DNA from: an uncultured Acidimicrobiia bacterium
Lineage (GTDB): Bacteria; Actinomycetota; Acidimicrobiia; IMCC26256; JAENVU01
Length of the DNA: 64,000 nt
NCBI GenBank assembly: GCA_963801105.1
Contig: CAWDDH010000003.1
Location: 3,642,056-3,706,055 of the forward strand
Direction of reading: 5' to 3'
This document shows, piece after piece, positions 1,217 to 48,562 of this stretch; within the stretch, counting starts at the first letter, position 1, and each line of letters starts with the position of its first letter. A program made the position numbers and the translations under genes. The notes beneath the pieces are model-generated. The model saw nothing but the letters and a program-made list of their open reading frames with translations. It was not told where the DNA came from and did not search any database.

Positions 1217-2467
1217 TCAGGCATCCAAACGGACGAGATCGTCGGGAGTCTCCCTGCGGACGACGATCCGGGCCGTCCCGTCGCGGAGGAAGACGACCGC
1301 CGGGCGAGGGACCTTGTTGTAGTTCCCGGCCATCGAATAGCCGTACGCGCCCGTCACCGGCGTCACGAGCAGGTCTCCGACCGCGACGTCGGCCGGGAGG
1401 TGAGCGTCCGGGACGATCACGTCTCCCTGCTCGCAGTGCTTGCCGGCCACGGAGGCGGCCAGGAGCCGCGCGGAGCCACGGGCGCGCGGGAGGTAGGCCT
1501 CGTACCCCGCGCCGTACAGCACCGGTCGGGGGTTGTCGCTCATCCCGCCGTCGACCGCGACATAGGTCCGGCCACCGGGGATCGCCTTGACCGTGCCGAC
1601 GCGATAGAGGGTCACGGCGGCGACGGCCGCGATCGACCGGCCGGGCTCGACCATGAGGCGGCGGTCGCCGATTCCGTTCCGCAACGCCGCCGCGTACTCG
1701 GACACCGAGGGATCCGGATCGCTCGCGAGGTACCGCGCGCCGAGACCGCCGCCGAGGTTGACGAGTGGGATCTCCACCCCGGTCGCCCGCTCGCATTCGT
1801 CGGCGAAGCGCGCGACCACACCGGCGGCCTCGGCGTAGGAGTCCAGCCGGAACACCTGGGACCCGATGTGTGCGTGGATCCCTCCGAAGCGGAGCTGGGT
1901 CGAACGTGCGACCCGGGCGACCGCCTCGGCCGCGGCACCGGTCGAGACGGTGAAGCCGAACTTCGAGTCGTCGGTGCCGGTCTGGATGAACTCGTGGGTG
2001 TGCGCTTCCACTCCCGGAGTCACCCGGACGAGGACCTCGCCGTCGAATCGAGCCGCCTCGAGCCGGCCGAGCTCGTCGAACGAGTCGGCGACGATCCGCC
2101 CCACGCCGGCGCGGTGCGCAGCAGCGATCTCGGCCTCGCTCTTGTTGTTGCCGTGCATCACGAGGCGCGCGGGCGGGAAGCCGGCGTGCAGCGCGACGTG
2201 GAGCTCACCGCCGGTGGCGACGTCGAGCAGCAGATCCTCCTCGTCGACCAGCCGGGCCATCGCGGTGCACAGGAACGCCTTGCCCGCGTAGGCGACGTTG
2301 CCCGCGCCGAAGCTCCCCACGTACGTCCGACAGCGCGCCCGAAGGTGCTCCTCGTCGTACACGAACAGCGGCGTACCGAACTCGTCGGCCAGTGCGTCGA
2401 GATCGGCCGCGGCCAGGGCGGGTGGCAGCAGCGTGACGTCGAAGGGCGCGTCGGCGGCGCTGGTCAC
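1217..2467 (-). CDS. lysA: Diaminopimelate decarboxylase
   Basis: YAGKAFL (PLP Lys), HGNNKS, SKFG, HIGSQ, NLGGG, EPGRS, GKHCEQGD, TGAYGYSM; GTGA overlap with argS stop. Confidence 0.97.
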   Translation of the reverse strand: MTSAADAPFDVTLLPPALAAADLDALADEFGTPLFVYDEEHLRARCRTYVGSFGAGNVAYAGKAFLCTAMARLVDEEDLLLDVATGGELHVALHAGFPPARLVMHGNNKSEAEIAAAHRAGVGRIVADSFDELGRLEAARFDGEVLVRVTPGVEAHTHEFIQTGTDDSKFGFTVSTGAAAEAVARVARSTQLRFGGIHAHIGSQVFRLDSYAEAAGVVARFADECERATGVEIPLVNLGGGLGARYLASDPDPSVSEYAAALRNGIGDRRLMVEPGRSIAAVAAVTLYRVGTVKAIPGGRTYVAVDGGMSDNPRPVLYGAGYEAYLPRARGSARLLAASVAGKHCEQGDVIVPDAHLPADVAVGDLLVTPVTGAYGYSMAGNYNKVPRPAVVFLRDGTARIVVRRETPDDLVRLDA

Positions 2468-4119
2468 TCGCCGTCCGGATCGTCGAGGCGCTCCATGGCG
2501 TCCGGCGCGGACACGCCCAGGATCCCGAGCGCGTTCGCGAGCCCGATCCGGACCGCCTCGACCAGCCAGAGGCGCGCCTGGGTGAGCGCGTCGTCGTCGG
2601 TGATGACCCGGCAGTCGCGGTAGAAGCCGTGGAGGCGCGCGGCGAAGTCGCGCACCCAGGTCGTGACCCGGTGCGGCGCGCGGAGCTCGGCCGCGCTGCG
2701 CATGACGTCGGGATACTCGGCGAGCGCACGCAGGAGATCGAGCTCGCGCTCGTGCGTGAGCAGCGCAAGGTCCACGGAATCGAGCGGCGCGCGCGTGATA
2801 CCGGCCTCCGCGGCCTTGCGGCCGATCGATGCCACACGCGCGTGCGCGTACTGGACGTAGAAGACGGGGTTCTCCATCGACTGCGTGGTCACGACGTCGA
2901 GGTCGAACGTCATCGCCGTGTCGATGCCCTGGAGCAGGAACGTGAGGCGCGCGACGTCCGGATCGACGTCGTCGAGGATGTCCGCGAGCGTGATCACGTT
3001 CCCGGTCCGCTTCGAGATCCGCACGACCGCCCCGTCCTTCACCAGCGTCACGAGCTGGCCCAGGATGATCTCGGGCTCAGGCGCGGCGTCGGTCCCGATG
3101 CCGAGTGCGCGCAGCCCGACCTGGACCGACTTCACCTGCCCGTGGTGGTCGGCACCCCAGATGTCGATCAGGTGGTCCCACCCACGCGCCACCTTGTCGC
3201 GGTGGTAGGCCAGGTCGTTGGCGAGGTACGTGGTCGTGCCGCTGCTGCGCACGAGGACCCGGTCGCGCTGGTCGCCGAGCGCCTCACTGGCCAGCCACTC
3301 GGCACCGTCCTGCTCGTAGGTGTGCCCACCGGCGCGCAGCGCGTCGAGCACGCCGGCGACGTCACCGCGAGCGTGCAGCGTCCGCTCCGAGAACCACGTG
3401 TCGAACTCCACGCCGACCCGTCCGAGGTCCTCGCGCAGCCCCGCCACGATCTCCCGGTAGCCCCAGTCCGCGGCCGCCTCGGTGGTGACGTCGTCGCCGA
3501 GGGCGGCGCGCAGCTCCTCGGCCATCTCGCCCACGTAGGCGCCCCGGTAGCCGTCATCGGGGATCTCGGTCCCGTGGTAGCGGGCCATGAGGGAGGCGGT
3601 GAAGGTGTCGAGCTGGGTCCCGGCGTCGTTGAGGTAGTACTCCCGGTGCACCGTCGCGTCCTGGGCCGCCAGGAGGTTCGCGATCGCGTCGCCCACCATC
3701 ACCCAGCGGCCACCGCCGGCGTGGAGCGGACCGGTCGGGTTGGCGGAGACGAACTCGAGGTTCACCTTCAGCCCGGTGTACGCGGTCCCCCGCCCGAACC
3801 CCGTGCCCCCCGCGACGGCCGCCCCGAGGACATCGTGCAGCCATGTCGGCGCCAGGAAGAAGTTGACGAAACCCGGCCCGGCGATCTCGATCCGCTGCAC
3901 GTGCCGGGGTCGTGCCGCCTCGAGCGCGGCGACGAGGCGTTCGGCGACGGCACGGGGCGCCACGCCGGCCGGCTTGGCGAGGACGAGCGCCACGTTGGTC
4001 TGCCAGTCGCCGTGCTCGCGGGCCTTGGCCGGCGAGACCTCCACCCCCCGAGGTGGCTCCGGCAGACCGGCCGCGACGAGGGCCGCGGCGATGGCGGTCG
4101 AGAGGTCGTCGGCAATCAC
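2464..4119 (-). CDS. argS: Arginine--tRNA ligase
   Basis: HGDWQTN, IAGPGFVN, EFVSANPTGPLHAGGGR (HIGH-like), WGADHHG, ISKRTG, NPVFYVQYAHAR. Start placed at GTG 4119; the ORF-track extension to 4287 looks non-coding. Confidence 0.96.
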   Translation of the reverse strand: MIADDLSTAIAAALVAAGLPEPPRGVEVSPAKAREHGDWQTNVALVLAKPAGVAPRAVAERLVAALEAARPRHVQRIEIAGPGFVNFFLAPTWLHDVLGAAVAGGTGFGRGTAYTGLKVNLEFVSANPTGPLHAGGGRWVMVGDAIANLLAAQDATVHREYYLNDAGTQLDTFTASLMARYHGTEIPDDGYRGAYVGEMAEELRAALGDDVTTEAAADWGYREIVAGLREDLGRVGVEFDTWFSERTLHARGDVAGVLDALRAGGHTYEQDGAEWLASEALGDQRDRVLVRSSGTTTYLANDLAYHRDKVARGWDHLIDIWGADHHGQVKSVQVGLRALGIGTDAAPEPEIILGQLVTLVKDGAVVRISKRTGNVITLADILDDVDPDVARLTFLLQGIDTAMTFDLDVVTTQSMENPVFYVQYAHARVASIGRKAAEAGITRAPLDSVDLALLTHERELDLLRALAEYPDVMRSAAELRAPHRVTTWVRDFAARLHGFYRDCRVITDDDALTQARLWLVEAVRIGLANALGILGVSAPDAMERLDDPDGE

Positions 4120-4354
4120 GGCAGTCGCAGGGCCCGGCGGGAGAAAGGACGGAGGATTCGTGACCATACTGTCCGGACTGCTCGGTCCCGACGTGCAATC
4201 GGGGTCGGGCGGCGCGATCTGTTCGGGCACGGTGCGACCACCCGTCGCGCGACGGATAATCTGGACATCCTTCCGGAGATTGGACACAACGGTCCGGGAG
4301 CATCATCGAGGGGCGGCGCAGCGTGACCACACGACTGCGATCGGGAGGAGGATC

Positions 4355-5233
4355 GTGGCACGACAAGGCGGATTGGGGCGCGGCCTGGCCTCGTTGTTGC
4401 CGGCCGCTTCGGAGCCCCATCCCGTCGGCCACATCCTCGCTCCGTTGACGGAGGGCGACGACGTGAGTGACCTCGGGACCGCGATGGTCGACGAGCTCGC
4501 AACCAGCCAGAGCGGTCTCGCGATCATCTACCACGCGCTCGACACGCTCGTCGCGGAGCACGACCTGCGCGACGCCGCGGTCGTGATCCAGGAACCGGGA
4601 CTCGGACGCCAGGTGTTCCGCGCCGGTCGACGACCCCTCGACGACCCCGGCGGTGAGGCGCTGCTCGACGCTCCTGCGGGGCTCTACACCGATCCCGCGG
4701 TCGACGCCGGAACCGTCGACGCGACGCTCGTCACGAGCCTCTGCGTGGTCGCGCTGCGGATGGAGATGCTGCGCTACGACTCGTGGCACGACGGGCTCAC
4801 CGAGCTGTTCGACCGCAGGACCTTCGACCGGTTGCTCGAGATGTCGGTGGCGCGCAGCGTGCGGTACCGGTGGCCGTTCACGCTCGTGCTGGTGGACCTC
4901 GACGAGCTCAAGCAGATCAACGACAGCGAGGGCCACCAGGCCGGCGACGCGGCGATCCGTGCGCTGGGTGAGCGCTTCCGGCGGGTGCTGCGCTTCGGCG
5001 ACAACGCCGCCCGCATCGGGGGCGACGAGTTCGCGTTGATCCTCCCGAGCACCGATCCCGACGACGTCCCGCCGCTGCTCGAGCGAATCGGTGCGGCCGA
5101 CGTCGGCCAGCGCAGCTGCCCGCCGTTCTCCTACGGAATCGCGCACTGTCCGACCGAGGCCGAGTCGACCGAGGAGCTCGTCGCCCTGGCCGACCAGCGA
5201 CTCTACGAAGCGAAGGCGGCGCGTCGTGCCTGA
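4355..5233 (+). CDS. GGDEF diguanylate cyclase with N-terminal ParB-like GLGRGL peptide
   Basis: Strong SD GGAGGAGG just before GTG 4355; DGLTELFDRR, DLDELKQINDSEGHQAGD, RFGD (RxxD I-site) five residues before GGDEF, ADQRLYEAK. Confidence 0.9.
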   Translation: MARQGGLGRGLASLLPAASEPHPVGHILAPLTEGDDVSDLGTAMVDELATSQSGLAIIYHALDTLVAEHDLRDAAVVIQEPGLGRQVFRAGRRPLDDPGGEALLDAPAGLYTDPAVDAGTVDATLVTSLCVVALRMEMLRYDSWHDGLTELFDRRTFDRLLEMSVARSVRYRWPFTLVLVDLDELKQINDSEGHQAGDAAIRALGERFRRVLRFGDNAARIGGDEFALILPSTDPDDVPPLLERIGAADVGQRSCPPFSYGIAHCPTEAESTEELVALADQRLYEAKAARRA

Positions 5234-5963
5234 CAGTGACGTCGGTCCCGTGAACCTCGACGACCTCGAGCTCGAGCTCCGCAAGCTTCCCGGCGTCCGC
5301 GCGGCCGGGTTCACCGATCGCGAAGACATGCTGATCGTGCAGGTCCAGGTCGCGGGCGACGATCCGGCCGCCGGGCTCGCGCACCAGGCCGCGCGTATCG
5401 CCTACCGGCACGCCGACAAGCCGGTCGCGCTCGAGGTCGTCCGCTGGCGGACCGTCGTCGGCCCCGGTGCGTCCGGACCGCCGGCCGTCACGGGTTCGAG
5501 CACGAACGACGCCACCAGCGCCATCGCGCCGCCGACCGACGACGACGCGGTGGAGGAGCCCGTTCGCGCTCGGGCCACCGACGACGCGGCCCGCGGACCA
5601 CGCGTCCGGCTGCTCGCGGTCCTGACCTTCCCCGACACCGACGAGCTCGAGGTCCACCTCACCTACGGCGGTCGGCGCGTGATCGGACGGGCCAGCGCGA
5701 GCACCGGGGTCAGCGGCGCGGTCGGCGCGACGATCGAAGGACTTCGCTCCTTCGTTCCCGACCTCGATGCCGATCTGCTCTGGGCCGAGGAGCTCGCGGG
5801 CCACGACGCCGCGCACGCGTCGGTCGTCGCGTGCGCGGTCGCCGTCGGGACGAGCCCGGTGCTCGGCATCGCGGCGGGTGGCAGCCGCATCGAGGCCGCG
5901 GCCCGCGCCACGCTCCACGCCTTGAACCGCACGCTCGAGGGCCGCACCGAGGACGCCGAGTAG
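5226..5963 (+). CDS. Hypothetical protein overlapping the DGC stop; C-terminus EAAARATLHALNR
   Basis: GTG at 5226 overlaps DGC TGA (alternative start 5250); GC-rich third positions; two apparent domains joined by a Pro/Ala/Thr linker. Confidence 0.75.
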   Translation: MPDSDVGPVNLDDLELELRKLPGVRAAGFTDREDMLIVQVQVAGDDPAAGLAHQAARIAYRHADKPVALEVVRWRTVVGPGASGPPAVTGSSTNDATSAIAPPTDDDAVEEPVRARATDDAARGPRVRLLAVLTFPDTDELEVHLTYGGRRVIGRASASTGVSGAVGATIEGLRSFVPDLDADLLWAEELAGHDAAHASVVACAVAVGTSPVLGIAAGGSRIEAAARATLHALNRTLEGRTEDAE

Positions 5964-7341: not shown

Positions 7342-8871
7342 GTGGCCACAATCGACGAAGCACCACCGTCCGGCCCGGCCCGGCCGTATCGGGGGCCGGA
7401 CCGACGCGGTGTCGCGCGCTTCGTCGTCCCCGCGGGCATCCCCACCGCGCTCCTCGTCGGACTCGCAATCCTGGCGCTGGCGACCGGGCCACACCTCGTC
7501 GTCCACGCCTCGCCGGCCGTGTTCGTCGAGCTCCGCGCGGTCGCAGCGACACTCGCGCTCCTCGGTGGCATCGCCTGCCTCCTGCGCTGGCGGCTCGACG
7601 GGATCGCGATGGGCTGGTGGTGCGGATGGGCGCTGCTGGTGATCGGGGTCGGCCAGCTCAGCCTCGAGCCGGTCGCCAGCCCCAGCACCCACGCCATCGA
7701 GCTCGCCACCTACATCGTGGCGGTCGTGCTGTTCGGACGCGCCGTCGTCGGCCCGGAGGTCGATGCGACGATCCACGTCGGGGCCACCGTCGCGATGGTC
7801 ACCGCGGGCGCTGCGCTCGCGACGGTCCCGGCCCTCGTCGTCGGCCGCTCCACGTCGGCCGCGGGCGCCGCGCTGGCGATCTCCGGCGCCCTCTGGATCG
7901 CGGTCGCCCTGGCCGCGTTCCTCCAGTCCCGGCGGGGACGCCAGCACCCGGAAGCCGGTTGGATCATCCCGGTGGCGGTGGCCTTCGGGCTGGCCGAGAT
8001 CATGCCCGAGCTCCTGCACCACCAGGGAACGGCGCTGCTCGCCGACCGATCCTTCGAGCTGGCCGCGACGAGCCTCGCGTGCGTCGGCGCACTCGGCGGC
8101 CTCGTCCGCGCCGCGGTCCACCACCGCACGCGCGCCCTCCGCGAGCACATCGACCACGAGCGCGAGATCGCCAACCGCCAGCGCGTCGAGGAGTCCTTCG
8201 CCGACCGGCTCCACGAGATGCGTTCCACGGTGGTGGCGATCGAAGGCGGCGTCGAGACCTGGGCTCCCGAGCTCGCGGCCAGCACGGACGCAACGCTGCG
8301 TGCGGCGCTCATCGCCGAGATCCGACGCCTCCGGACGCTCGTGAACGAGTCCCCCGCGGCCGCGGGCGTCGAGGCGTTCGACATCGAGACGGCCCTGATG
8401 CCCACGATCGCCCTGCACCGGGCGAACGGGCAGGTCGTGACGTTCGAATGCGACGGTGCCTGCAGCGCGGTGGGCCGCCCGGCCGAGGTGGCCCAGGTGG
8501 TGCACGGCCTGCTCGCCAATGCCGCCAAGTACGCGCCCGGGTCACCGGTCCTGGTCCGTGTGCACCATGCCCTCGACGAGATCGCGATCCGCGTCCAGGA
8601 CGAGGGGCCGGGGATCGACCCCGTCTACTGGGACCAGATCTTCGAGCGGGGGGTCCGGCTCGAGGGCACCCGGGCCGAGGGATCCGGGATCGGGCTGAGT
8701 GTGGGCCGCCGGTTGATCCGGAGCCAGGACGGCGACCTCTGGGTCGAGGAGGCCCCGACGGGTGGCGCCGCCTTCCTCATCTCGATCCCGGCCGCACCGG
8801 CCCTCAGGGTCGTGGCCGGGCGTGCCGAAGCATCTCCCGTGATGTCCCCGTCCATCCAGGAGGCCCGGTGA
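7342..8871 (+). CDS. Multi-TM sensor histidine kinase
   Basis: About 7 hydrophobic segments, H-box LHEMRST, N-box LLANAAKYA, G1 DEGPGI, F-box IFERG, G2 GSGIGL. Confidence 0.92.
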   Translation: MATIDEAPPSGPARPYRGPDRRGVARFVVPAGIPTALLVGLAILALATGPHLVVHASPAVFVELRAVAATLALLGGIACLLRWRLDGIAMGWWCGWALLVIGVGQLSLEPVASPSTHAIELATYIVAVVLFGRAVVGPEVDATIHVGATVAMVTAGAALATVPALVVGRSTSAAGAALAISGALWIAVALAAFLQSRRGRQHPEAGWIIPVAVAFGLAEIMPELLHHQGTALLADRSFELAATSLACVGALGGLVRAAVHHRTRALREHIDHEREIANRQRVEESFADRLHEMRSTVVAIEGGVETWAPELAASTDATLRAALIAEIRRLRTLVNESPAAAGVEAFDIETALMPTIALHRANGQVVTFECDGACSAVGRPAEVAQVVHGLLANAAKYAPGSPVLVRVHHALDEIAIRVQDEGPGIDPVYWDQIFERGVRLEGTRAEGSGIGLSVGRRLIRSQDGDLWVEEAPTGGAAFLISIPAAPALRVVAGRAEASPVMSPSIQEAR

Positions 8872-9609
8872 CCGGCGCTGCAGTCGACGACCACTGGTCC
8901 GGCGTATCGGCGTCGTCGACCTCGGAGCCGGCCGTCGCCCGCGCGCCTGGCCATCGTCGAGGATCACGCGCTGCTGGCCCAGTCCCTGGCGTTCGCGCTG
9001 ATGAACCTCGGCGTCGACGTGATGGTGGTCGCCGACCTCAGTCCCGCAGCCGTCGTCGAGACGCTGCGGGCCAACCAGCCCGACATGGTCCTGCTCGACT
9101 TCGACCTCGGCGACGCGGGAGTCGGTCTCGACCTGATCCCCTTCATCACCGAGCTCGGTCTCCGGGTCGTGATGCTCACAGGCGAGAAGAGCCCGATCAC
9201 CCTCGCCGAGTGCGTCGAGGCCGGTGCGATCGGCATCATCGACAAGTCCGAGCCGTTCGCGCGGCTCATCGAGCAGGTCAGCGATGTCGCCGACGGTCGG
9301 GGGATCCTGAGCCGACCGGCACGCGACGCGCTCCTGGCCGATCTCCGTGCACACCGCACCCAGGTGAGCCAGCAGCTCTCGCCGTTCCAGCGGCTGACCG
9401 TGCGCGAGAGCGAGGTCCTCCAGGACCTCGTCGAGGGCAAGAACGCGGAGCGCATCGCCGAGGACAGCTACGTCTCGGTGGCGACCGTCCGGTCACACAT
9501 CAAGGCCGTGCTCGCCAAGCTGGGCGTCAACAGCCAGCTGGCCGCGGTCGCGATGGTGCGGCGCGCGGGCTGGTCGACCGGCGACCGCCGGCCCGCCGCC
9601 GACGACTGA
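8868..9609 (+). CDS. NarL/LuxR-family response regulator (apparent frameshift near 8940)
   Basis: Receiver LAIVEDH..VLLDFDL..MLTG..IDKS and LuxR HTH LTVRESEVL..VSVATVRSHIKAVLAKLGVNSQ. SD-preceded GTG at 8868 (GTGA overlap with kinase stop) is out of frame with LAIVEDH. Confidence 0.9.
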
Positions 9610-9751
9610 GCCCGCCACCTCGCGTTCACCGAGAACGCCCCGTCCGCTCGCGAATTCCCGAAACTTGAGGATGCCGCAACCGGATGATTCGGTCATCCTC
9701 CTCGAAGCGCACAGTGGCGCATCGGGCTCGGACACCGGAGGTGGCATCGGC

Positions 9752-9934
9752 ATGAGGGAATGGTCGGTCGGGCTCTGGATCCGCACCGTCGGGACACGCG
9801 ACCAACGCGGCACGACCGCCGTGGAGTTCCTCATGATCGTCGCGCTCGTCGCCGCCGTCCTCGTGACGGTCGCGGCGGCGTTCGGCGGCCTCGTGGCCGC
9901 GCCGTCGGCGCGGGTCGGAGGGGGGCTGCCCTAG
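9752..9934 (+). CDS. flp: Flp-family type IVb/c pilin
   Basis: 60 aa; prepilin site DQRG|TTAVEF (E+5; F in place of the usual Y) then hydrophobic helix LMIVALVAAVLVTVAAAFG; GGAGG upstream. Confidence 0.8.
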   Translation: MREWSVGLWIRTVGTRDQRGTTAVEFLMIVALVAAVLVTVAAAFGGLVAAPSARVGGGLP

Positions 9935-10005
9935 CGGCCCCGCCGTCCGACGCTGTCCATTCGACGCACCACCCGGACCTCGGAGGCCGAGCCATCAGCA
10001 GCACC

Positions 10006-11013
10006 GTGACCAACGAGGACGACCGGCACTCCGCCTACGTCGCTGCGGCCAGCGCCGCCGAGCTGCTCACCACGGCGAATGAACCGCGCGCGTCCGCCCG
10101 TTCCACTCGCTTCGCGACCGGGTTCCAGCCCCTCGACGACGTCCTCGGGGGAGGCTTTCGCGCCCAGGACCTCGTCGTGCTCGGCGGCCGACCGGGGGTC
10201 GGGAAGACCGTCGCCGCCCTCCAGTGGGCGCGCACCATCGCAATGGAGGGCTCCACCGCCATCTACGTGTCGTACCAACACTCTCCGCAATCGCTGTTGC
10301 ACCGCGTGCTCGCGCTCGAGCTCGGGAGCATCGCCCGCGCCGACGAGGTGACCGATCTCACGCGGCTGCGCACCGTCGCCCAGGAGGTGGTGCTCGGCGC
10401 TGCACCGGTGACCCGTCTCACGGTTGATCCACTCGGCGAGGAGGCGATCCGCCGGCTCGAGTCCTACGGAGCGCGCCTGCGCCTGGTCCAGGCCTCGGGA
10501 TTGCGGACGGGAACCGTCGAGCTGTCACGGATCCTCGCGGAGCAGCGGAGCGGGCCCACCGCACTGTTCGTGGACTACCTCCAGAAGATCCCCGTGGAGA
10601 GTCGTCCCCAATCGGACGAGGACCGCACCACCTTCCTCGCCGAGCGGCTGAAGGAACTCGCGATGATCGCCGAGGTCCCCGTCGTCGTCGTCGCGGGCGC
10701 GGACCGCGAGGGCCTGACGTCCAGGAGCATGCACCTCCAGCACCTCCGCGGCTCCACCGCCCTCGCGCACGAGGCCGATGTCGTCATGCTGCTCAACGAC
10801 AAGATCCGCGTCGTCTCGCGGACCCACCTCGAGTTCGACCCGGTCCGAGCCGAGGAGTTCCGTCGCCGGGTCGTGCTCAGCGTCGAGAAGCACCGCGAGG
10901 GATGGGCCGACGTGCACCTCGAGTTCCGCAAGGACCTCGCCAGCTACCGGCTCGATCCGCACGGCGCGTTCGTGACCGAGACCCTCGCGGACCGCGTCGG
11001 GTTCGAGGAGTAG
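10006..11013 (+). CDS. DnaB-like (SF4/RecA-fold) ATPase, C-terminal domain only
   Basis: TGFQPLDDVLGGG, Walker A GGRPGVGKT, LFVDYLQ, LKELA..VPVVV, HLRGS..EADVVMLL, KHREG arginine finger; no DnaB N-terminal domain. Start uncertain (GTG 10006; SD at 9982 suggests about 9994). Confidence 0.85.
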   Translation: MTNEDDRHSAYVAAASAAELLTTANEPRASARSTRFATGFQPLDDVLGGGFRAQDLVVLGGRPGVGKTVAALQWARTIAMEGSTAIYVSYQHSPQSLLHRVLALELGSIARADEVTDLTRLRTVAQEVVLGAAPVTRLTVDPLGEEAIRRLESYGARLRLVQASGLRTGTVELSRILAEQRSGPTALFVDYLQKIPVESRPQSDEDRTTFLAERLKELAMIAEVPVVVVAGADREGLTSRSMHLQHLRGSTALAHEADVVMLLNDKIRVVSRTHLEFDPVRAEEFRRRVVLSVEKHREGWADVHLEFRKDLASYRLDPHGAFVTETLADRVGFEE

Positions 11014-41707: not shown

Positions 41708-42895
41708 TCAGTCGGGGACGAGGGAATCGGCGATCCGCGCCAGACCGGCGAGGTCGGCGATCTCGTCGGCGAAGGTCCGCACGTCGACGACGATGTCGGG
41801 CCGGTGCTCGAGCTCGGTACGCAGCTCCGCCTCCCGTCGCGCCACGACCGCGAAATTCTCGAACGACGTCCCGATCGTGATCAGCACTCGCGCCGCCGTG
41901 CCGCGGTCCTCGATGCCCTCCACCTCGGCGGCGATCCGCGCGCCGTCCCGGCGCAGCACCGCGGCGGCGTGGGCGCCGTCGTCGCCGAAGAGCTCGACCG
42001 GCAGCGTCTTGTTGAGGATCAACGCCCCGAGGTGGAACTCGCGCTTGACGAGCTCGGAGCAGAACCGCTGGCCCTCGCGGAACGGCGCGTCCTCCAGCGT
42101 GGTCACGACCGCGAACGTCGTCCGGCGGTCGTGCAGCAGCTCCTCGACCGCTCGGGATCGCTTCACGAAACCGTCGTACATCGACTGGAAGTTCAGGAAG
42201 AACTCGGCGATGTCCTGGAGGAACTGGCTGCCGAGCAGACGGTCGGCGACCTGGTAGAAGGGCTTGCTCGCCATGGTCAGGAAGCGCGCGCCGCGTTTGC
42301 CGCCGACGCGGTAGGGCGCAGTCAGCCAGCGCAGCAACCGCCCGCCGAAGAACTCGGCCATGCGCGCGGGCGCGTCGAGGAAGTCGAGCGCATTCCGGGT
42401 CGGGGGGGTGTCGACGACGATCAGGTCGTACTTTCCCGTCTGGTGGATCTCGAAGAGCCGCTCCATTGCGACGTAGTCGTGGCTCTGGACGAAGCGCGAG
42501 GTGAGGTTGTCGTAGAGGCGGTTGTCGAGGATGCGGTACGCCGTCTCCTCGTCGGGGGCATGGCGCAGCACCAGCGCGTCCCAGCTCTGCTTGGTGTCGA
42601 GCATCGCCGCCCAGAGCTCCCCGCGGGGCGTGAGGCCGGCCTCGGCGAAGGCCTGCTCGGGCACCCGCACCTCGACGTTGCCGATCCCCTCCACACCGAG
42701 CGCGTCGGCCAGCCGCTTGGCGGGGTCCACCGTCACCACGAGGACCTTCCCGCCGAAGCGCGTGGCCGCCGCCAGCCCCGCCGCGGCCGCGATCGACGTC
42801 TTGCCCACGCCCCCCGAGCCGCAGAACACGACGATCTCCTTGGACGCCAGCACCGACTCGAGGCTGTGTACGTTCGCGAGGGCGGCGTCGCTCAC
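41708..42895 (-). CDS. ArsA/Get3-like ATPase (Rv3680-like)
   Basis: CGSGGVGKT, TVDPAKRLADALG, VVDTPPTRNALDFLDAP; GTGA overlap with partner gene. Confidence 0.92.
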   Translation of the reverse strand: MSDAALANVHSLESVLASKEIVVFCGSGGVGKTSIAAAAGLAAATRFGGKVLVVTVDPAKRLADALGVEGIGNVEVRVPEQAFAEAGLTPRGELWAAMLDTKQSWDALVLRHAPDEETAYRILDNRLYDNLTSRFVQSHDYVAMERLFEIHQTGKYDLIVVDTPPTRNALDFLDAPARMAEFFGGRLLRWLTAPYRVGGKRGARFLTMASKPFYQVADRLLGSQFLQDIAEFFLNFQSMYDGFVKRSRAVEELLHDRRTTFAVVTTLEDAPFREGQRFCSELVKREFHLGALILNKTLPVELFGDDGAHAAAVLRRDGARIAAEVEGIEDRGTAARVLITIGTSFENFAVVARREAELRTELEHRPDIVVDVRTFADEIADLAGLARIADSLVPD

Positions 42896-43854
42896 AGGCC
42901 CAGCTCCGCGGTCAACGCGTCGGCGACGAGCTCGGTCTCCCGCCGGCCCTGCGAGCGCGCGAACAGGTACGGGACGTAGAGCGTGGGCAGGTCCACGGTG
43001 TCCCTGAGCTCGCGGAGATGCTCGACGCGGCTCCGGCGCATCATGACCGCGAGCCGCGCCGCCTCGACGACGGCTGAAGTTCCCGGGCCGGCCCGCTCGG
43101 CGACCCGGTCGAGCAGGGGCGGCGTCGCGAGCTGCTCGAAGACCGCCTCGTCCCGCGTGGTGAACAGCTCCGGCAGGACGCGGTTGACGATCACCGCGCC
43201 GAGCGGGACGTCGAGCTCCTGGCGGGCGCGGGCGACGAGGTCGATCGTCTCCTGCACCGGCATCTCCTCCGGGGTCGTGACGACATTGAGCGCGGTGATC
43301 GCCGGATCCGAGAGCAGCTCGCTCATCCATGCGGTCTGACCGCGGACCGGCCCGACCGCCACGAGATCCCGGATCGCGTCCGCCGCGCCGAGCTGCGCGA
43401 TGACGTGACCGGTCGCGGCGGCGTCGACGACGACGACGTCCCAGTCGGCGCGGCCCTCGATCGACTCCCGCACTTCCCAGCACACCTTGCCGATCGTGAG
43501 GATCTCCTTCACGCCGGGCGCGGCCGTCGCGACGAAGTCGAGCATCCCGGCGAGCGGGCCGAGCCGACCGAGGATCGGGATTCGCAGGTTCAGGCGCAGG
43601 TACTCGGCGAGGCTGGCCTCGGTGTCCATGGCCATGACCGACACGCCGGGCATGACCTCACGCGGCTTGAACCCGATCGTCCCCGCCTCGAAGCGCTCGG
43701 CGATCGTGCCCTTCGCGTCGACGTCGACGACGAGGACCCGCTTGCCCTGCCGGGCCGCCACGAGCGCGAGCGCGGCGGCCACGGTGCTCTTCCCCACGCC
43801 GCCTTTGCCGGTGACGACGAGGAGGCGCCGCCCGAGGAGGTCGGGCTCGGCCAT
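42892..43854 (-). CDS. ArsA/Get3-like ATPase (Rv3679-like)
   Basis: VTGKGGVGKST, APGVKEILTIGKV, VDAAATGH, PEEMPVQET. Confidence 0.92.
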   Translation of the reverse strand: MAEPDLLGRRLLVVTGKGGVGKSTVAAALALVAARQGKRVLVVDVDAKGTIAERFEAGTIGFKPREVMPGVSVMAMDTEASLAEYLRLNLRIPILGRLGPLAGMLDFVATAAPGVKEILTIGKVCWEVRESIEGRADWDVVVVDAAATGHVIAQLGAADAIRDLVAVGPVRGQTAWMSELLSDPAITALNVVTTPEEMPVQETIDLVARARQELDVPLGAVIVNRVLPELFTTRDEAVFEQLATPPLLDRVAERAGPGTSAVVEAARLAVMMRRSRVEHLRELRDTVDLPTLYVPYLFARSQGRRETELVADALTAELGL

Positions 43855-43867
43855 GGCTGCTCCGGGC

Positions 43868-44095
43868 CTAGCGCCCGAACCCGACCTTGCGGGTGCCGTC
43901 GTCAATGGTCAGCTCGACGTAGGCGATCTTGTCGGTCGGGATGCCCACCTTCCGGCCCTTGCCGTCCTCGAACCAGACGAACGCGGAGTCCGAACCGACG
44001 CCCGCCTCGATCACGCCGATGATCTTCGCCGGGTCGTCGTCGACCTCGATCGAGATCTCCTTGGGCGTGTGCACGACACCGATGTGGATTTCCAT
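43868..44095 (-). CDS. DUF3107 family protein
   Basis: MEIHIGVVHTPKEISIE..FEDGKGRKVGIP..IAYVE..RKVGFG matches the recalled DUF3107 pattern. Confidence 0.88.
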   Translation of the reverse strand: MEIHIGVVHTPKEISIEVDDDPAKIIGVIEAGVGSDSAFVWFEDGKGRKVGIPTDKIAYVELTIDDGTRKVGFGR

Positions 44096-44174: not shown

Positions 44175-47100
44175 TCAGTGGGCGCCGGTGTTGGCGAGGT
44201 CGCGTCCGAAGCGCGGCCACTGGTGGACCCGGCCCGCCGCGGTCGGCGTGTGCCACACGATGAGCACGCCGTCTCGGCGCACGACCGCGAGCTCGAGCCG
44301 GCCGTCCCCGTCCCAGTCCCCGAGGCTCGGTGTCCCCACGAGCCAGCCGCCGGTGAGCTTCGGCCATCCGGCCGGAACGGTCCCGTTCGGCGTCACCGCG
44401 CTGAGCGTGTACACACCGTTGCCGGCGATCACCTCCGTGCGCCCGTCGCCGTTGACGTCCGCGATCGCCGGCGTCACGAAGAAGGCGAGGTCCGGGGTCT
44501 CGCGCGGGTACGCCGGACGCATCGCGCCGGTCGCGCCGTCCCAGGCCGCGAGCAGGTCATCGGACGGCAGCTGCAGTTCGGGCGACGCCGTGTCGAACAG
44601 GCGGGAGAGCCCCGACACCGGCGCCGCGACGTCCATCCGCCTTCGGCTGCCCAGCTTGCCGACGCTCGGACCGCCGAAGGCGCTCAGGATCACGCCGACG
44701 TCGTCGGAGTTGCGCAGCGCGCCGGTCCCGGTCGGGTCGTTCGCGAAGAGCCCGCCGTACCAGTGGAGCGGGACATCCTTGCCGCCGACCTGGCCCAGCG
44801 CCGACTTCCCGTCGAGACCGAGGACGTAGATCGGGCCGACCGCGGACGTGGCGACGATCTCGCGGCCGGGATGCGTCGGGACGACGTCGCCGATCGCGGC
44901 CTGGGCCGCGACACCGTCGCCGATCACCGGGAGGACCTCGCGCTGGAACATGCCGAGCTTCACCGGCCACCCCGGCAGGTAGGCCTGCGCGTCCGGGTGC
45001 GCGGGATTCGGGTTCGGGTTCGTCGCCAGCGTTCCGCGCGGCGAGATCACGTACTCACGCGAGTTGCCCGATGTCCCCGGCAGGCCGCCGAACTCGGGCG
45101 CGTTGAAGGGCTCGTCGTACTCCTCCTGCGCGCCGACGACGATCTCGGCGCGTCCATCGCCGTCGAGGTCGGCCAGCGCCGGGGTGGCGACGAGCTCCCC
45201 GCCGTCGCCGACCCCGGCGTCGGGGCGGAAGACGACATGGTGGGTGACGGGGTCCACGCTCGCGACCTTGGCGGGATCGACGACCAGGACCGGGAAACCC
45301 GCGACCGGCGAGCCGTCACCGTGCCAGGCGTACACGTGGCGGTCCATCGCCGCGCCGACGAGCTCGACGCGACCGTCGCCGTCGAGGTCGGCCGCGGCGA
45401 GCGAGTTCGCGAAGCCCGGCTTCGTGCGGTTGACGTGATCCTGCGCCGACGGATCGTCACGCGAGAAGTCCGGGTTCGTCTGCGCGTCGCGCGAAGCCCG
45501 GCAGCTCGTGGCCCCACCGGTTCCATGCGTCGACCCGGCCTTCGAGATCCGCGACGGCGATGTCGGGCGAGCCGTCGCCGTCGAGGTCCGCGATCGTGGG
45601 CGCGCCGACCATGACCGCACCCCCGGGGCCCGTGATGCCTGCGTACGCCGCGGCCCAGGAGCGGATCCAGTACGGCGCCGGACGGGTGTGCACCGGGAAA
45701 CCGGGCAGCTCCCGACCGTCGGCGCGTCGCACGTGCACGGCCCCATCGTCGGTGGCGACGACGAGCTCCTGCCCGCCGCCCGGCTCGAGATCCGCGAACA
45801 CCGGCGACGCGGTGCCCGCCCCCGCGATCCGCTGGGGCATCCCGCGCACGAGATCGGGGTCGTCGTGCACGAACAGCTGCTTCTGGGACTCACCCCGGAG
45901 CCCTCGGGTGGGACCGTCCTCCGCGGTGACCACGACCCGGACGCGGACGCTGAAGCGCTCCTCATCGGTGCGGCCCGTCGTGGCGTCGGCCGGTGATCCC
46001 GTCGCCCCGGCGAGGGCCGCCGCGACCTCGCGTCGGTGCAGGGTGGCGAGCCGGCCGTCGACGGCATGGTGGCGACGGCGCTCGGATTCGATCACGTGCC
46101 AGGTGTCGGCGGCGGGATACGGGGGCGGCTGGAAGCCCGCCGCCCACTCCACCCGGTACGAGTAGCGGTGCGCCCGCGGTGCCGCGACGTGACCGGTGAT
46201 CGCGACCGAACCGGAGGTGGGCAGCACGTCGAACCACCGTGGGCCCGTCAGGTCGGCCTCGGGCGGGATCCGCGCGTCGCGGACCGCCTTGACCAGCTCG
46301 TACGCGTTGAGCCGGCCGTAGCCGTGGGTCGCGTCCCACCCGGCACGGCTCGGATAGCGCACGGTGCTCCCCGTGAGGAAGTCGTTGGCGGGATCGACCG
46401 CGTTCGGAGTTCCGAAGTCGATGTCGTCCGCCGAGGCCCGGGCGAGCTGGAGGATCTCGTTCGCCGTGAGCGTGATGCCGCGGTCACGCGCCTCGCTGAT
46501 CACCAGCCCGGCGACACCGCTCATGACCCCGGCGGCCTCCGACGAGCACGACGACGACGGAACGGAGAGGAACGTGCGCCCGCCGTAGTTGGTGCAGCCG
46601 TTGAGCGCGAGGTAGCTCGGCGGCGAGCTCGTGGTCGTGACCGAGTTGACCGCGAGCGTGTGCTCGAGCGCGCCGGGGAGGTTCGGGTGCTTGGAGGCCT
46701 CGTCGGCCATGGAGGCGATGACGGGGATGCCCCGCGCGTACGCGGCATCGATCGCCTGCTGGGCCTGGGGCGGGTTCGTGATCGCACCGAGAGCTTCCTG
46801 GATGACCGCCGCACCCGAGTCGATCCCGAAGAGCGTCCCCGCCGCGAACCGCCCACCGTCGGCGATGAACGAGTCGCCGACGCGGACGGGGATGAACGTG
46901 CACCGCGGGCAGGTCCCCACGCCCCCGGTTCCGTTGTCGGCGGCGGTGGAGTCCTCGGCTTCCCCGGTGCCGTGGCCGTACTGCACGGTGTCGAGGGGGT
47001 CGTTGTCGCCGAAGAGGAAGTCCCACCCCGAGATGTCGTCCACGTACCCGTCGTGGTCGTCGTCGATGCCGTTGTTCCATCGCGGGTCGAGGATCAGGTC

Positions 47101-47604
47101 CTCGGGATCGGCGACGCCGTTGCCGTTGCGGTCGGCGATCGCGCCAAAGTCCGCGATCGAGAACCGGCCGTCGCCGTTGCAGTCGCCGCTCCGGATCGCG
47201 CACGGGGGCGTGACCTCACCGCGGTTGAGGTAGGCGCGATCGGCGAGGTCGGCCATGGCTCCCGCGTCGCGCCACTTGATGCCGGAGTCGAGCACCGCGA
47301 TGCGCACGTCCGGACGACCGCGCGTCACACCCCAGGCCAGGTCGACCGCCGCGCCCTTCTGCCCGCAAAGATGGTGCGGCGAGGTCGCGAGGGCCGGGTC
47401 CCGCAGGCTGGTGCGCTTGAAGTTGGTGCGGTCGAACTCGGCCGGGAGGCTCGCGGGCTCGTCGGCCGGTCCGTAGCGCCAGTTGGCGCAGTCGAGCGCG
47501 TGGACCACCGGCGGTGGGGTCCCGTGGTGCGCGCCCGCCGCGGGCACCAGGCCGCCGAGACCGGTCAGCGCCACCACCACCCCTGCGATCGCAAGTCTCC
47601 GCAC
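44175..47604 (-). CDS. Secreted S8 peptidase-like protein with C-terminal FG-GAP repeats (frameshift near 45488)
   Basis: Signal peptide; IAVLDSGI, GHGTG, SCSSEAAGVMSGVAGL, GYGRLNA; Ca-loop motifs DCNGDG, DRNGNG, DDDHDGYVDD; repeated ADLDGDG/GDWDGDG with GFP/GWP. Confidence 0.87.
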
Positions 47605-47694: not shown

Positions 47695-48562
47695 TCAGCC
47701 GATCGTGAGCTCGGAGCGGTAGATGCGGCGCGGCGTGATGGCGTCGATCTGGGTGGCGATCGAGACGAACGCGGCCGCGGCCTCCGAGTCGGGATCGGTG
47801 ACCACGATCGGTGCGCCGGTGTCGCCGCCCTCGCGCAGCGCCTGGACGAGCGGGACCTTGGCGAAGAGCGGGACCTCGAGCCGGTCGGCGAGCTCCTGAC
47901 CCCCGTCGGCACCGAAGATCTCGTACGCGACGCCGTCATCGCCGCGGAACCAGCTCATGTTCTCCACCACGCCGATCACGTCGAGCTCGACCTTCTGCGC
48001 CATCGCGGCCGCGCGCTGGGCGACCGCCTGGGCGGCGCGGCTGGGGCGTCGTCACGATCACGACCTCGGCACGCGGCAGGAACTGGCTCATCGAGAGCGA
48101 GACGTCGCCGGTCCCCGGCGGCATGTCGATGACGAGGTAGTCGGGCTCGCCCCACGCGACGTCGGTGAGGAACTGCTCGAGCGCCTTGTGGAGCATCGGG
48201 CCCCGCCAGATGACGGCCTGGTCCTCGGGGACGAAGAAGCCCATCGACAGCAGGCGGACACCGTGGGCCGACGGCGGGATCATCAGGTTGTCGTCGGTGA
48301 GCTCGGGACCGTTCTCGACGCCGAGCATCCGCGGCATCGAGAAGCCCCACACGTCGGCGTCGATCGCGGCGACGTCCTTGCCCATGCGGGCCAGCGCGAC
48401 CGCCAGGTTGGTCGTGACCGAGGACTTCCCGACACCCCCCTTGCCCGACGCCACCGCGATCACACGGGTGCGGGCGTGCGAGAACGGGTTCGTACCGGGC
48501 ACGGGCGTCTCCTCGGATCGGGGGTCACCCCGGGGGCGGGGCGACATTTCCACTACGGACAT
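47695..48562 (-). CDS. mrp: Mrp/NBP35 (ApbC) family ATPase (frameshift near 48038)
   Basis: ASGKGGVGKSS, DADVWGFS, WRGPMLHKAL, DMPPGTGD, VTTPQ then GVVENMSW..IFG..GG. Confidence 0.93.

Follow-up and report, generated by a model that had tools for sequence, protein, structure and literature searches.

The gene at positions 4355..5233 (+) of a 64,000-nucleotide stretch of an uncultured Acidimicrobiia bacterium (contig CAWDDH010000003.1 of GenBank assembly GCA_963801105.1; the whole stretch is called the window here) encodes a GGDEF-type diguanylate cyclase whose first 16 residues resemble the peptide with which chromosomal ParB/Spo0J proteins bind ParA. The protein represents a conserved and apparently undescribed variant, which on the evidence of its sequence is most likely a ParA-docked cyclase of the Acidimicrobiia. 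Comparison of orthologues indicates that the peptide is real, translated and under strong purifying selection. The explanation that we favour, and consider rather probable, is an active, product-inhibited cyclase whose N-terminus serves as a working ParA-binding peptide, with the chromosomal ParA of the host (Soj) as its partner.

Architecture and structural model of the cyclase

The gene encodes 292 amino acids (aa; the stop codon is included in the interval), with a GTG start codon at 4355 and a TGA stop at 5231-5233, as read from the DNA. A Shine-Dalgarno-like sequence, GGGAGGAGG (4343..4351, +), lies 3 nucleotides (nt) before the start. The translated protein opens V(M)ARQGGLGRGLASLLP, and residues 1-16, M/V-ARQGGLGRGLASLLP (4355..4402, +), form the predicted ParB-type ParA-binding peptide, with L7, R9, L11, L14 and L15 as its core. 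They are followed by a flexible linker of variable sequence (residues 17-36; 4403..4462, +), delimited by low model confidence (predicted local distance difference test, pLDDT, < 50) and by alignment gaps, and by a middle alpha/beta domain without a Pfam name (residues 37-143; 4463..4783, +), the closing helix of which (123-144) enters the GGDEF catalytic domain (residues 144-291; 4784..5227, +; assigned by Pfam PF00990 and Foldseek). Within the catalytic domain, the active-site motif G222-G-D-E-F226 (5018..5032, +) and the inhibitory I-site RxxD, R213-F-G-D216 (4991..5002, +), five residues upstream of it, were both read directly. An RxxD at this distance from GGDEF is typical of many cyclases, and is not required.

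PF00990 is the sole Pfam family matched (residues 144-291, E 1e-31, 110.3 bits against a cut-off of 23.8). The NCBIfam model TIGR00254 is matched as well (E 9.4e-33, 113.3 bits against a cut-off of 37.4), while none of the NCBIfam equivalogs attains its cut-off for the protein. The GGDEF motif, R213 and D216 are invariant in an alignment of 43 sequences, and with both motifs intact the enzyme looks active.

The AlphaFold2 model built on this alignment has a mean pLDDT of 83.9. The pLDDT falls below 50 at residues 1-26 and 32-34, which are taken as disordered, and the peptide is not docked onto the protein's own domains in the single-chain model. The middle domain (approximately 37-143) is modelled as a confident small alpha/beta fold, with helices at 39-48, 54-68, 98-103 and 123-144 and strands at 73-80, 84-89 and 109-113. 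Foldseek matches the protein to solved GGDEF domains, for example 4urs_A (E 1.2e-14), a result that the GGDEF domain dominates. An atlas feature search with the middle domain returned scores of 0.80-0.85, with some GAF clusters among them, below the level counted as more than a lead; the middle domain may thus be GAF-like, as a weak lead only.

The ParB_N/CTPase fold (PF02195) has no Pfam match in the cyclase at E <= 0.01, and the parS-binding helix-turn-helix (HTH; PF17762) and the C-terminal dimerisation domain, both present in the host ParB, are likewise absent from it by Pfam; the cyclase is therefore not a ParB. An earlier, sequence-only reading of the gene had described a Shine-Dalgarno sequence, the N-terminal peptide, a linker, an unnamed middle domain and an intact GGDEF domain with RxxD, and had noted that no ParB CTPase or HTH domain follows; each of these elements is found at the position it had given, and GGDEF alone is matched by Pfam.

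Similarity to the ParB peptide and specificity of the motif

The host genome (3.9 Mb in 4 contigs, ~71% GC) encodes one ParB, with ParB_N, HTH_ParB and ParB_C domains; the single ParB_N match of the genome is at C3:1016298. The N-terminus of this ParB is ARRGGLGKGLGALIP. Over the first 16 positions the two N-termini share 11 residues, among them every one that has been shown necessary for ParA binding, which upholds the assignment of the peptide to the ParB type.

A minimal ParA-binding motif, [LIF]G[KR]G[LIF], has been defined (bioRxiv 10.1101/2025.10.10.680097). In the cyclase it is matched by L7-G-R-G-L11 within GGLGRGLASLLP. The contacts of the peptide have been dissected in Myxococcus xanthus (PMC12462528), where residues 1-20 of ParB alone stimulate the ParA ATPase and the dissociation of its dimer. 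Single Ser/Ala exchanges of ParB L11, R13, L15, L18 and I19 impaired ParA binding or function; any one exchange of L11, L15, L18 or I19 strongly impairs binding, and the central R13, which is Lys in about half of ParBs, touches a conserved Tyr/acidic patch (PMC12462528). The counterparts of these five residues in the cyclase are L7, R9, L11, L14 and L15, which are identical or equivalent to them, and are invariant or nearly so in the 43-sequence alignment.

The minimal motif is unspecific, with 139 six-frame matches in the host genome, 29 of them near a possible start. An extended form, G[LIVM]G[RK]x[LIVMF]xx[LIVMF][LIVMF], has 7 six-frame matches in the same genome, and two of these begin a long frame: that of ParB and that of the cyclase gene. 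In 74 related genomes, the back-translated pattern GLG(R/K)GLxxL(L/I)P gave 103 matches, which by their coordinates fall at ParB loci (72, made up of 70 primary loci and two second ParB copies) and at the cyclase (31). There was no match elsewhere in the 74 genomes; the reversed pattern, used as a control, gave 2. A search with query residues 1-40 for other long proteins bearing the peptide (lengths 512-2000, E <= 10) scored none, which is weak evidence.

Translation and conservation of the peptide

The cyclase has 1104 homologues at E <= 0.001; the best 120 share 59-98% identity, and 'Acidimicrobiia bacterium' is the only source label on the database homologues. The query and these best 120 of the 1104 were taken as the database set (n=121). 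GLG[RK]xL is present in 101 of its 121 sequences, inside the first nine residues in 90 and behind a longer annotated N-terminus in 11. In 99 of the 101 motif-bearing sequences the start residue lies exactly 5 positions before the first Gly. The other 20 entries are annotated with later starts, and 3 of them begin within the motif, which identifies these three as calling or contig artefacts.

A search that is independent of gene callers was carried out with query residues 1-143 against 400 genomes of the class. It matched 93 of them, nearly all from the order of the window itself (the tally includes 3 unpublished genomes). Of the 98 match rows, 90 were taken; the 8 others were 3 from the unpublished genomes and 5 that were weak or second matches. 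Among these 90 loci, 45 have the strict motif ahead of the middle domain and in its frame, 10 have a weaker RGLxAL(F/L/I)P form, and 35 have neither. A start codon is located exactly five codons upstream of the motif in 40 of the 45 strict loci (GTG in 38, TTG in 2), and among the 37 orthologue loci in which the upstream frame is long enough for the comparison, 33 have a Shine-Dalgarno-like tetramer 4-18 nt before the start. The sequence-only reading had named a downstream start in the homologues as one outcome that would overturn it; the peptide is instead kept at the true N-terminus.

Across the 45 strict loci, the invariant or near-invariant residues G, L, G, R, L and L are each encoded by 4-6 different codons, and G6, L7, G8, R9, L11, L15 and P16 are invariant in the 43-sequence alignment. 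After the closing Pro, residues vary freely, and the length of the linker ranges from 2 to 73 residues across orthologues. Fixed residues, varied codons and a free linker together point to purifying selection on a translated, tethered peptide.

The linkers carry short motifs of their own that are specific to lineages: 'EPHPxxH(L/H)F(A/P)P' in the family of the window (HPxxH is matched in 12 of the 45 loci) and 'PPxS(I/V)YETPK' in the small-genome lineage g9. These may be second docking sites.

Distribution and decay of the peptide

The middle domain defines a small family: in a set of 1.84 billion representatives it has 163 relatives at E <= 0.001. Among the 150 of these relatives that were listed, 9 have the strict motif and four more a weaker form. 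A scan of contigs with a generic ARIGGDEF pattern yielded 80 kept loci, 3 of them true orthologues, all from metagenome-assembled genomes of uncultured Acidimicrobiia or Actinomycetes.

In a quick IQ-TREE tree of 82 loci, a clade of 35 rows from eight families is motif-positive throughout. Its sister clade of 23 rows (families f4 and f11) has 7 rows with the strict motif, 10 with a weakened one (such as 'ARGLGALFP', 'GRGLAAILP' and 'RRGLSALIP') and 6 in which it is lost. The motif is absent from family f8, from other orders and from second paralogues. On this tree 6 motif changes are needed, against 24 with shuffled labels; as related rows share labels, the comparison speaks for clustering only. 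The simplest reading is that the motif was gained once within the order, was kept for long and decayed in some lineages afterwards.

In some genomes of family f4 the middle-domain cyclase has a second, divergent paralogue, which lacks the peptide and shares 34-36% identity (L096 in G015, L097 in G140, L100 in G216).

Soj and the other ParA-family ATPases of the host

The host ParB is encoded in an operon, rsmG-parA-parB, on the same contig as the cyclase and ~2.6 Mb from it (parAB at C3:1015475-1017100, cyclase at C3:3646410). The ParA of this operon, Soj, adjoins ParB in 69 of 71 loci examined. PMC12462528 names 21 ParA residues, and the host Soj has 15 of them unchanged and 6 exchanged (E>D, V>I, L>V, T>A, T>N and Q>K). 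Over 45 Soj sequences the Q190 column is the variable one among the 21, the remaining 20 being invariant or almost invariant. The numbering was transferred from M. xanthus ParA with a constant offset of 15, which was inferred from the pattern of matches. By this comparison the host Soj keeps the ParB-binding pocket. The Soj/ParA frame itself (L002:613-2271, G000 C3:1014587-1016245) is open for 552 aa, with the ATPase core formed by the last 263 aa and preceded by a long acidic stretch rich in Ala, Glu and Thr.

Besides Soj, the host genome encodes ParA2 and ParA3, both clear ParA paralogues, together with several P-loop proteins that are distantly related. Orthologues of ParA2 (>= 57% identity) occur in ~40 of 74 genomes, with none in the searched peptide-bearing g9 genomes (1.5-1.8 Mb), and g18 holds ParA2 yet has lost the peptide. 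ParA3 is found in 8 of the 74 genomes. Both were rejected as conserved partners, their presence or absence being uncorrelated with that of the peptide. Given this patchy occurrence, and the near-constant position of Soj beside ParB, Soj alone among the ParAs accompanies the peptide throughout. ParA2 is an orphan of 252 aa that adjoins an open reading frame of 137 aa for an excisionase/MerR-like HTH protein (L003; G000 C3:1067422-1070937).

A complex of two Soj cores, two ATP, two Mg and cyclase residues 1-40 was predicted with both proteins given as alignments. It scored 0.03 against a mark of 0.32; as the prediction had no controls and the partner had a pLDDT < 50, the result was counted neither way.

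The downstream gene and the surroundings

A gene for a 237-aa protein follows the cyclase (5250..5963, +) after a gap of 16 nt, so that the two are probably co-transcribed. It adjoins the cyclase in 76 of the 90 loci. The protein has no Pfam match. It is modelled (pLDDT 82.9) with a ferredoxin-like N-domain that a disordered linker joins to a C-domain of duplicated beta-beta-beta-alpha form. The C-domain resembles the allosteric, amino-acid-binding regulatory domain of LeuA/citramalate synthase (Foldseek 3fig_A, E 1.5e-5; 3f6g_B, E 5e-4). On the basis of this model, the downstream protein may be a ligand-binding partner of the cyclase or a c-di-GMP (cyclic di-GMP) receptor.

In family f3, a 337-aa protein (P0157) has 'MERGGLGRSLSSIL' and then the middle domain, lacks GGDEF altogether, and continues into a fused part that is homologous to the downstream protein (hhalign probability 99.2%, E 1.4e-19). 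A fusion of this Rosetta-stone type suggests that the peptide travels with the middle domain and that the middle domain works with the downstream protein. In P0157, moreover, the ParB-like peptide belongs to a protein other than a cyclase. The N-termini at loci L095 (G353) and L102 (G172) are similar to that of P0157.

On the other side, the cyclase is flanked by a divergent argS (2464..4287, -), encoding arginyl-tRNA synthetase (Pfam DALR_1, Arg_tRNA_synt_N and tRNA-synt_1d). It lies divergently upstream in 61 of the 90 loci, a count limited by the length of the flanks, and serves as an anchor of synteny, not as a functional part.

GGDEF genes number 19 in the host genome and 9-13 in the small g9 genomes, the cyclase included. 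The cyclase is specialised and not the sole source of c-di-GMP.

As to the rest of the window, a histidine kinase (HATPase_c) and a LuxR-type response regulator form a pair that is followed by a 417-aa KaiC/DnaB_C-like ATPase (7342-11010, +). Three P-loop matches occur within the window. Two are adjacent or overlapping ArsA/GET3-like ATPase frames (41711-43905, -) and the third is Mrp/NUBPL-like (47939-48562, -), so that the earlier statement that the window holds no parA was right in substance. An FG-GAP repeat protein (44178-46067) and a subtilase (45460-47604) are encoded near them.

Proposed mechanism

The mechanism that we propose starts from the translated peptide M-ARQGGLGRGLASLLP, which sits on a disordered tether of ~20 residues. 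By analogy with other cyclases, the long helix between the middle domain and GGDEF would make the enzyme a dimer, which, like the ParB dimer, would offer two peptides. These would dock at the ATP-dependent dimer interface of Soj, where R9 would meet the Tyr/acidic patch that is conserved in the host Soj. The cyclase would thereby be tethered transiently to nucleoid-bound ParA-ATP, and c-di-GMP synthesis would be placed on, shared out with, or gated by a ParA distribution that segregation reshapes. In return, the peptide would stimulate ATP hydrolysis by ParA away from the centromere and compete with ParB.

The sequence-only reading had proposed that the cyclase has captured a ParA-docking peptide, by which c-di-GMP synthesis could be positioned. 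Capture of the peptide is supported by the comparative evidence given above; binding to ParA and localisation, and effects on cyclase activity and on segregation, are what we infer from the sequences.

Several observations weigh against this mechanism. The match to the motif carries the whole case for an interaction with ParA, and dimerisation of the cyclase is assumed by analogy. The gene has no genomic linkage to parA, parAB being ~2.6 Mb away. The peptide is dispensable, since 10 of the 90 loci have the weaker form only and 35 have none; the latter include all homologues from other orders as well as lineages of the same order at ~55-64% identity (g18, g10, g13, G015, G268, G124 and G374). 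There is a fixed difference between the cyclase and ParB peptides, with Ala12 in place of Gly and Leu15 in place of Ile, which could reflect a different partner or a different affinity. Finally, the N-termini of ParB are almost invariant in 70 genomes, and as they hardly vary, co-variation of the cyclase and ParB peptides has no power as a test.

Alternative explanations

The alternative that survives best, while still being unlikely, is that the peptide has another partner or role. It could address another ParA/MinD-type ATPase or an unrelated protein, or could serve in self-regulation, as a degradation tag or in membrane contact, its likeness to ParB being due to ancestry or convergence. The retention of Ala12 and Leu15 across families is consistent with this, as are the other ParA-family ATPases of the genome (11 AAA_31 and 17 CbiA matches) and the several lineages that lost the peptide but kept ParAB. 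However, ParA2 and ParA3 do not track the peptide, the five residues retained are exactly those that contact ParA, and no third protein family in the 74 genomes uses the motif. The disordered, undocked peptide of the single-chain model also argues against a role on the protein's own domains.

Next comes the possibility, which we regard as doubtful, that the protein is a regulator of ParA in the first place. As a soluble mimic of ParB, it would trigger ParA hydrolysis through its peptide, or block the ParB pocket, away from the centromere, and segregation would respond to the signal of the middle domain or to c-di-GMP at the I-site. The same motif evidence speaks for this as for a ParA-docked cyclase. 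The free M. xanthus ParB1-20 stimulates hydrolysis and dimer dissociation (PMC12462528), so any protein that displays the peptide must perturb ParA. P0157, which keeps the peptide and the middle domain with no GGDEF, indicates that the peptide can persist without cyclase output. On the other hand, the GGDEF motif and the I-site are invariant in the large clade with the strict peptide, from which it can be argued that enzymatic output matters, and a ParB competitor that is diffuse would seem to burden segregation.

A more elaborate proposal, for which we see only a slender chance, treats the DNA-bound ParA-ATP dimer as an activating scaffold. Its two symmetric ParB pockets would hold the two peptides of the cyclase dimer and so switch GGDEF on; c-di-GMP would then report the ParA-ATP that remains on the nucleoid, with the co-operonic protein resembling the LeuA regulatory domain as receptor or co-sensor. 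If this were true, c-di-GMP from the cyclase would stand for the progress of segregation, and much of one order of the Acidimicrobiia would share a second messenger by which the ParABS cycle is read out.

An artefact, with the true start downstream (for example at GTG 4463) or a chance likeness to ParB in a GC-rich genome, is close to refuted and highly improbable: later starts are annotated in 20 of the 121 database entries, the minimal 5-mer is common by chance (139 six-frame matches) and the open frame runs far upstream of 4355, as is usual at 71% GC, but 3 of the 20 short entries start inside the motif, the amino acids are invariant despite varied codons, the start codon is conserved at -5 with a Shine-Dalgarno sequence in 33 of 37 loci, and the extended motif occurs only at ParB and the cyclase gene, against 2 matches for the reversed control.

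Relation to known systems

The ParA-docked cyclase can be compared first with chromosomal ParB/Spo0J itself. The motif is given as LG-R/K-GL for M. xanthus ParB (PMC12462528), and in both proteins it stands at the extreme N-terminus, before an unstructured stretch. They share the pattern G-L-G-R/K-G-L-x-x-L-(I/L)-P, including the five critical residues. In contrast to ParB, the cyclase has no ParB/Srx CTPase fold, HTH or ParB C-terminal dimerisation domain, its gene is not beside parA, and its peptide consistently has Ala12 and Leu15 where ParB has Gly and Ile.

Two ParB-fold proteins, PadC (M. xanthus) and KorB (plasmid RK2), use the ParA-binding motif outside segregation (bioRxiv 10.1101/2025.10.10.680097). 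In them, as would be the case for the cyclase, the motif is reused to bring ParA to another cellular function or to couple it with one. That survey covers ParB-fold proteins only, and the words 'GGDEF' and 'diguanylate' do not occur in it. PadC and KorB keep the ParB-CTPase fold, whereas the cyclase is an unrelated enzyme.

ParA/MinD ATPases also have activators other than ParB, TlpT/PpfA being one example, and to our knowledge the peptides of PomX, McdB and MinE are not like the ParB motif. These three act through short N-terminal peptides (PMC7993993, PMC13170346 and PMC12139897; for MinE, PMC12462528). As would be the case for the cyclase, a short, positively charged N-terminal peptide on a cargo or regulator engages the ParA/MinD dimer; unlike that of the cyclase, the peptides of PomX, McdB and MinE belong to dedicated partners of the ATPase. 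Since the peptide of the cyclase nearly copies that of the host ParB, its target should be the chromosomal ParA itself.

On the side of c-di-GMP, DmxA of M. xanthus is a diguanylate cyclase localised by the cell cycle, which its transmembrane domain brings to the division site (PMC11255338). It offers a precedent for the hard-wiring of c-di-GMP into a cell-cycle machine, being a GGDEF enzyme whose place and activity are tied to one, but it has neither a ParA-binding peptide nor a link to ParABS. CdbA and CdbS of the same organism link c-di-GMP with chromosome organisation, CdbA being a c-di-GMP-binding nucleoid protein (PMC7156744, PMC10313047). They and the cyclase would both connect c-di-GMP with nucleoid organisation and segregation; CdbA and CdbS do so as receptors or effectors on DNA, and not as a cyclase docked to a segregation ATPase.

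Outside subscription journals and supplements, the literature yielded no account of a GGDEF protein that bears such a ParB-type peptide, in agreement with the sequence-only reading, which knew of no described example; the novelty is provisional to that extent. What is new is a combination of two known things, a GGDEF cyclase and the ParA-binding peptide of ParB, that is apparently undescribed.

Significance

In the searchable literature, the ParA-binding peptide has been described only on ParB-fold proteins (ParB, PadC and KorB), and scans for the motif should reach beyond homologues of ParB. A peptide of 16 residues with five defined contact residues is readily mutable, the decayed and lost variants found in nature provide controls, and the conserved two-gene operon points to the next component of the system. 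If the preferred reading, a cyclase docked to Soj, is true, it would be the first known case of an unrelated signalling enzyme that addresses the chromosomal ParA. It would join c-di-GMP signalling physically, in a concrete and testable way, to the ParABS segregation machine, and would be a case from nature in which a ParA gradient organises local signalling by a second messenger. For the organisms themselves, the finding suggests that the Acidimicrobiia that carry the gene tie c-di-GMP signalling to the segregation of their chromosome.

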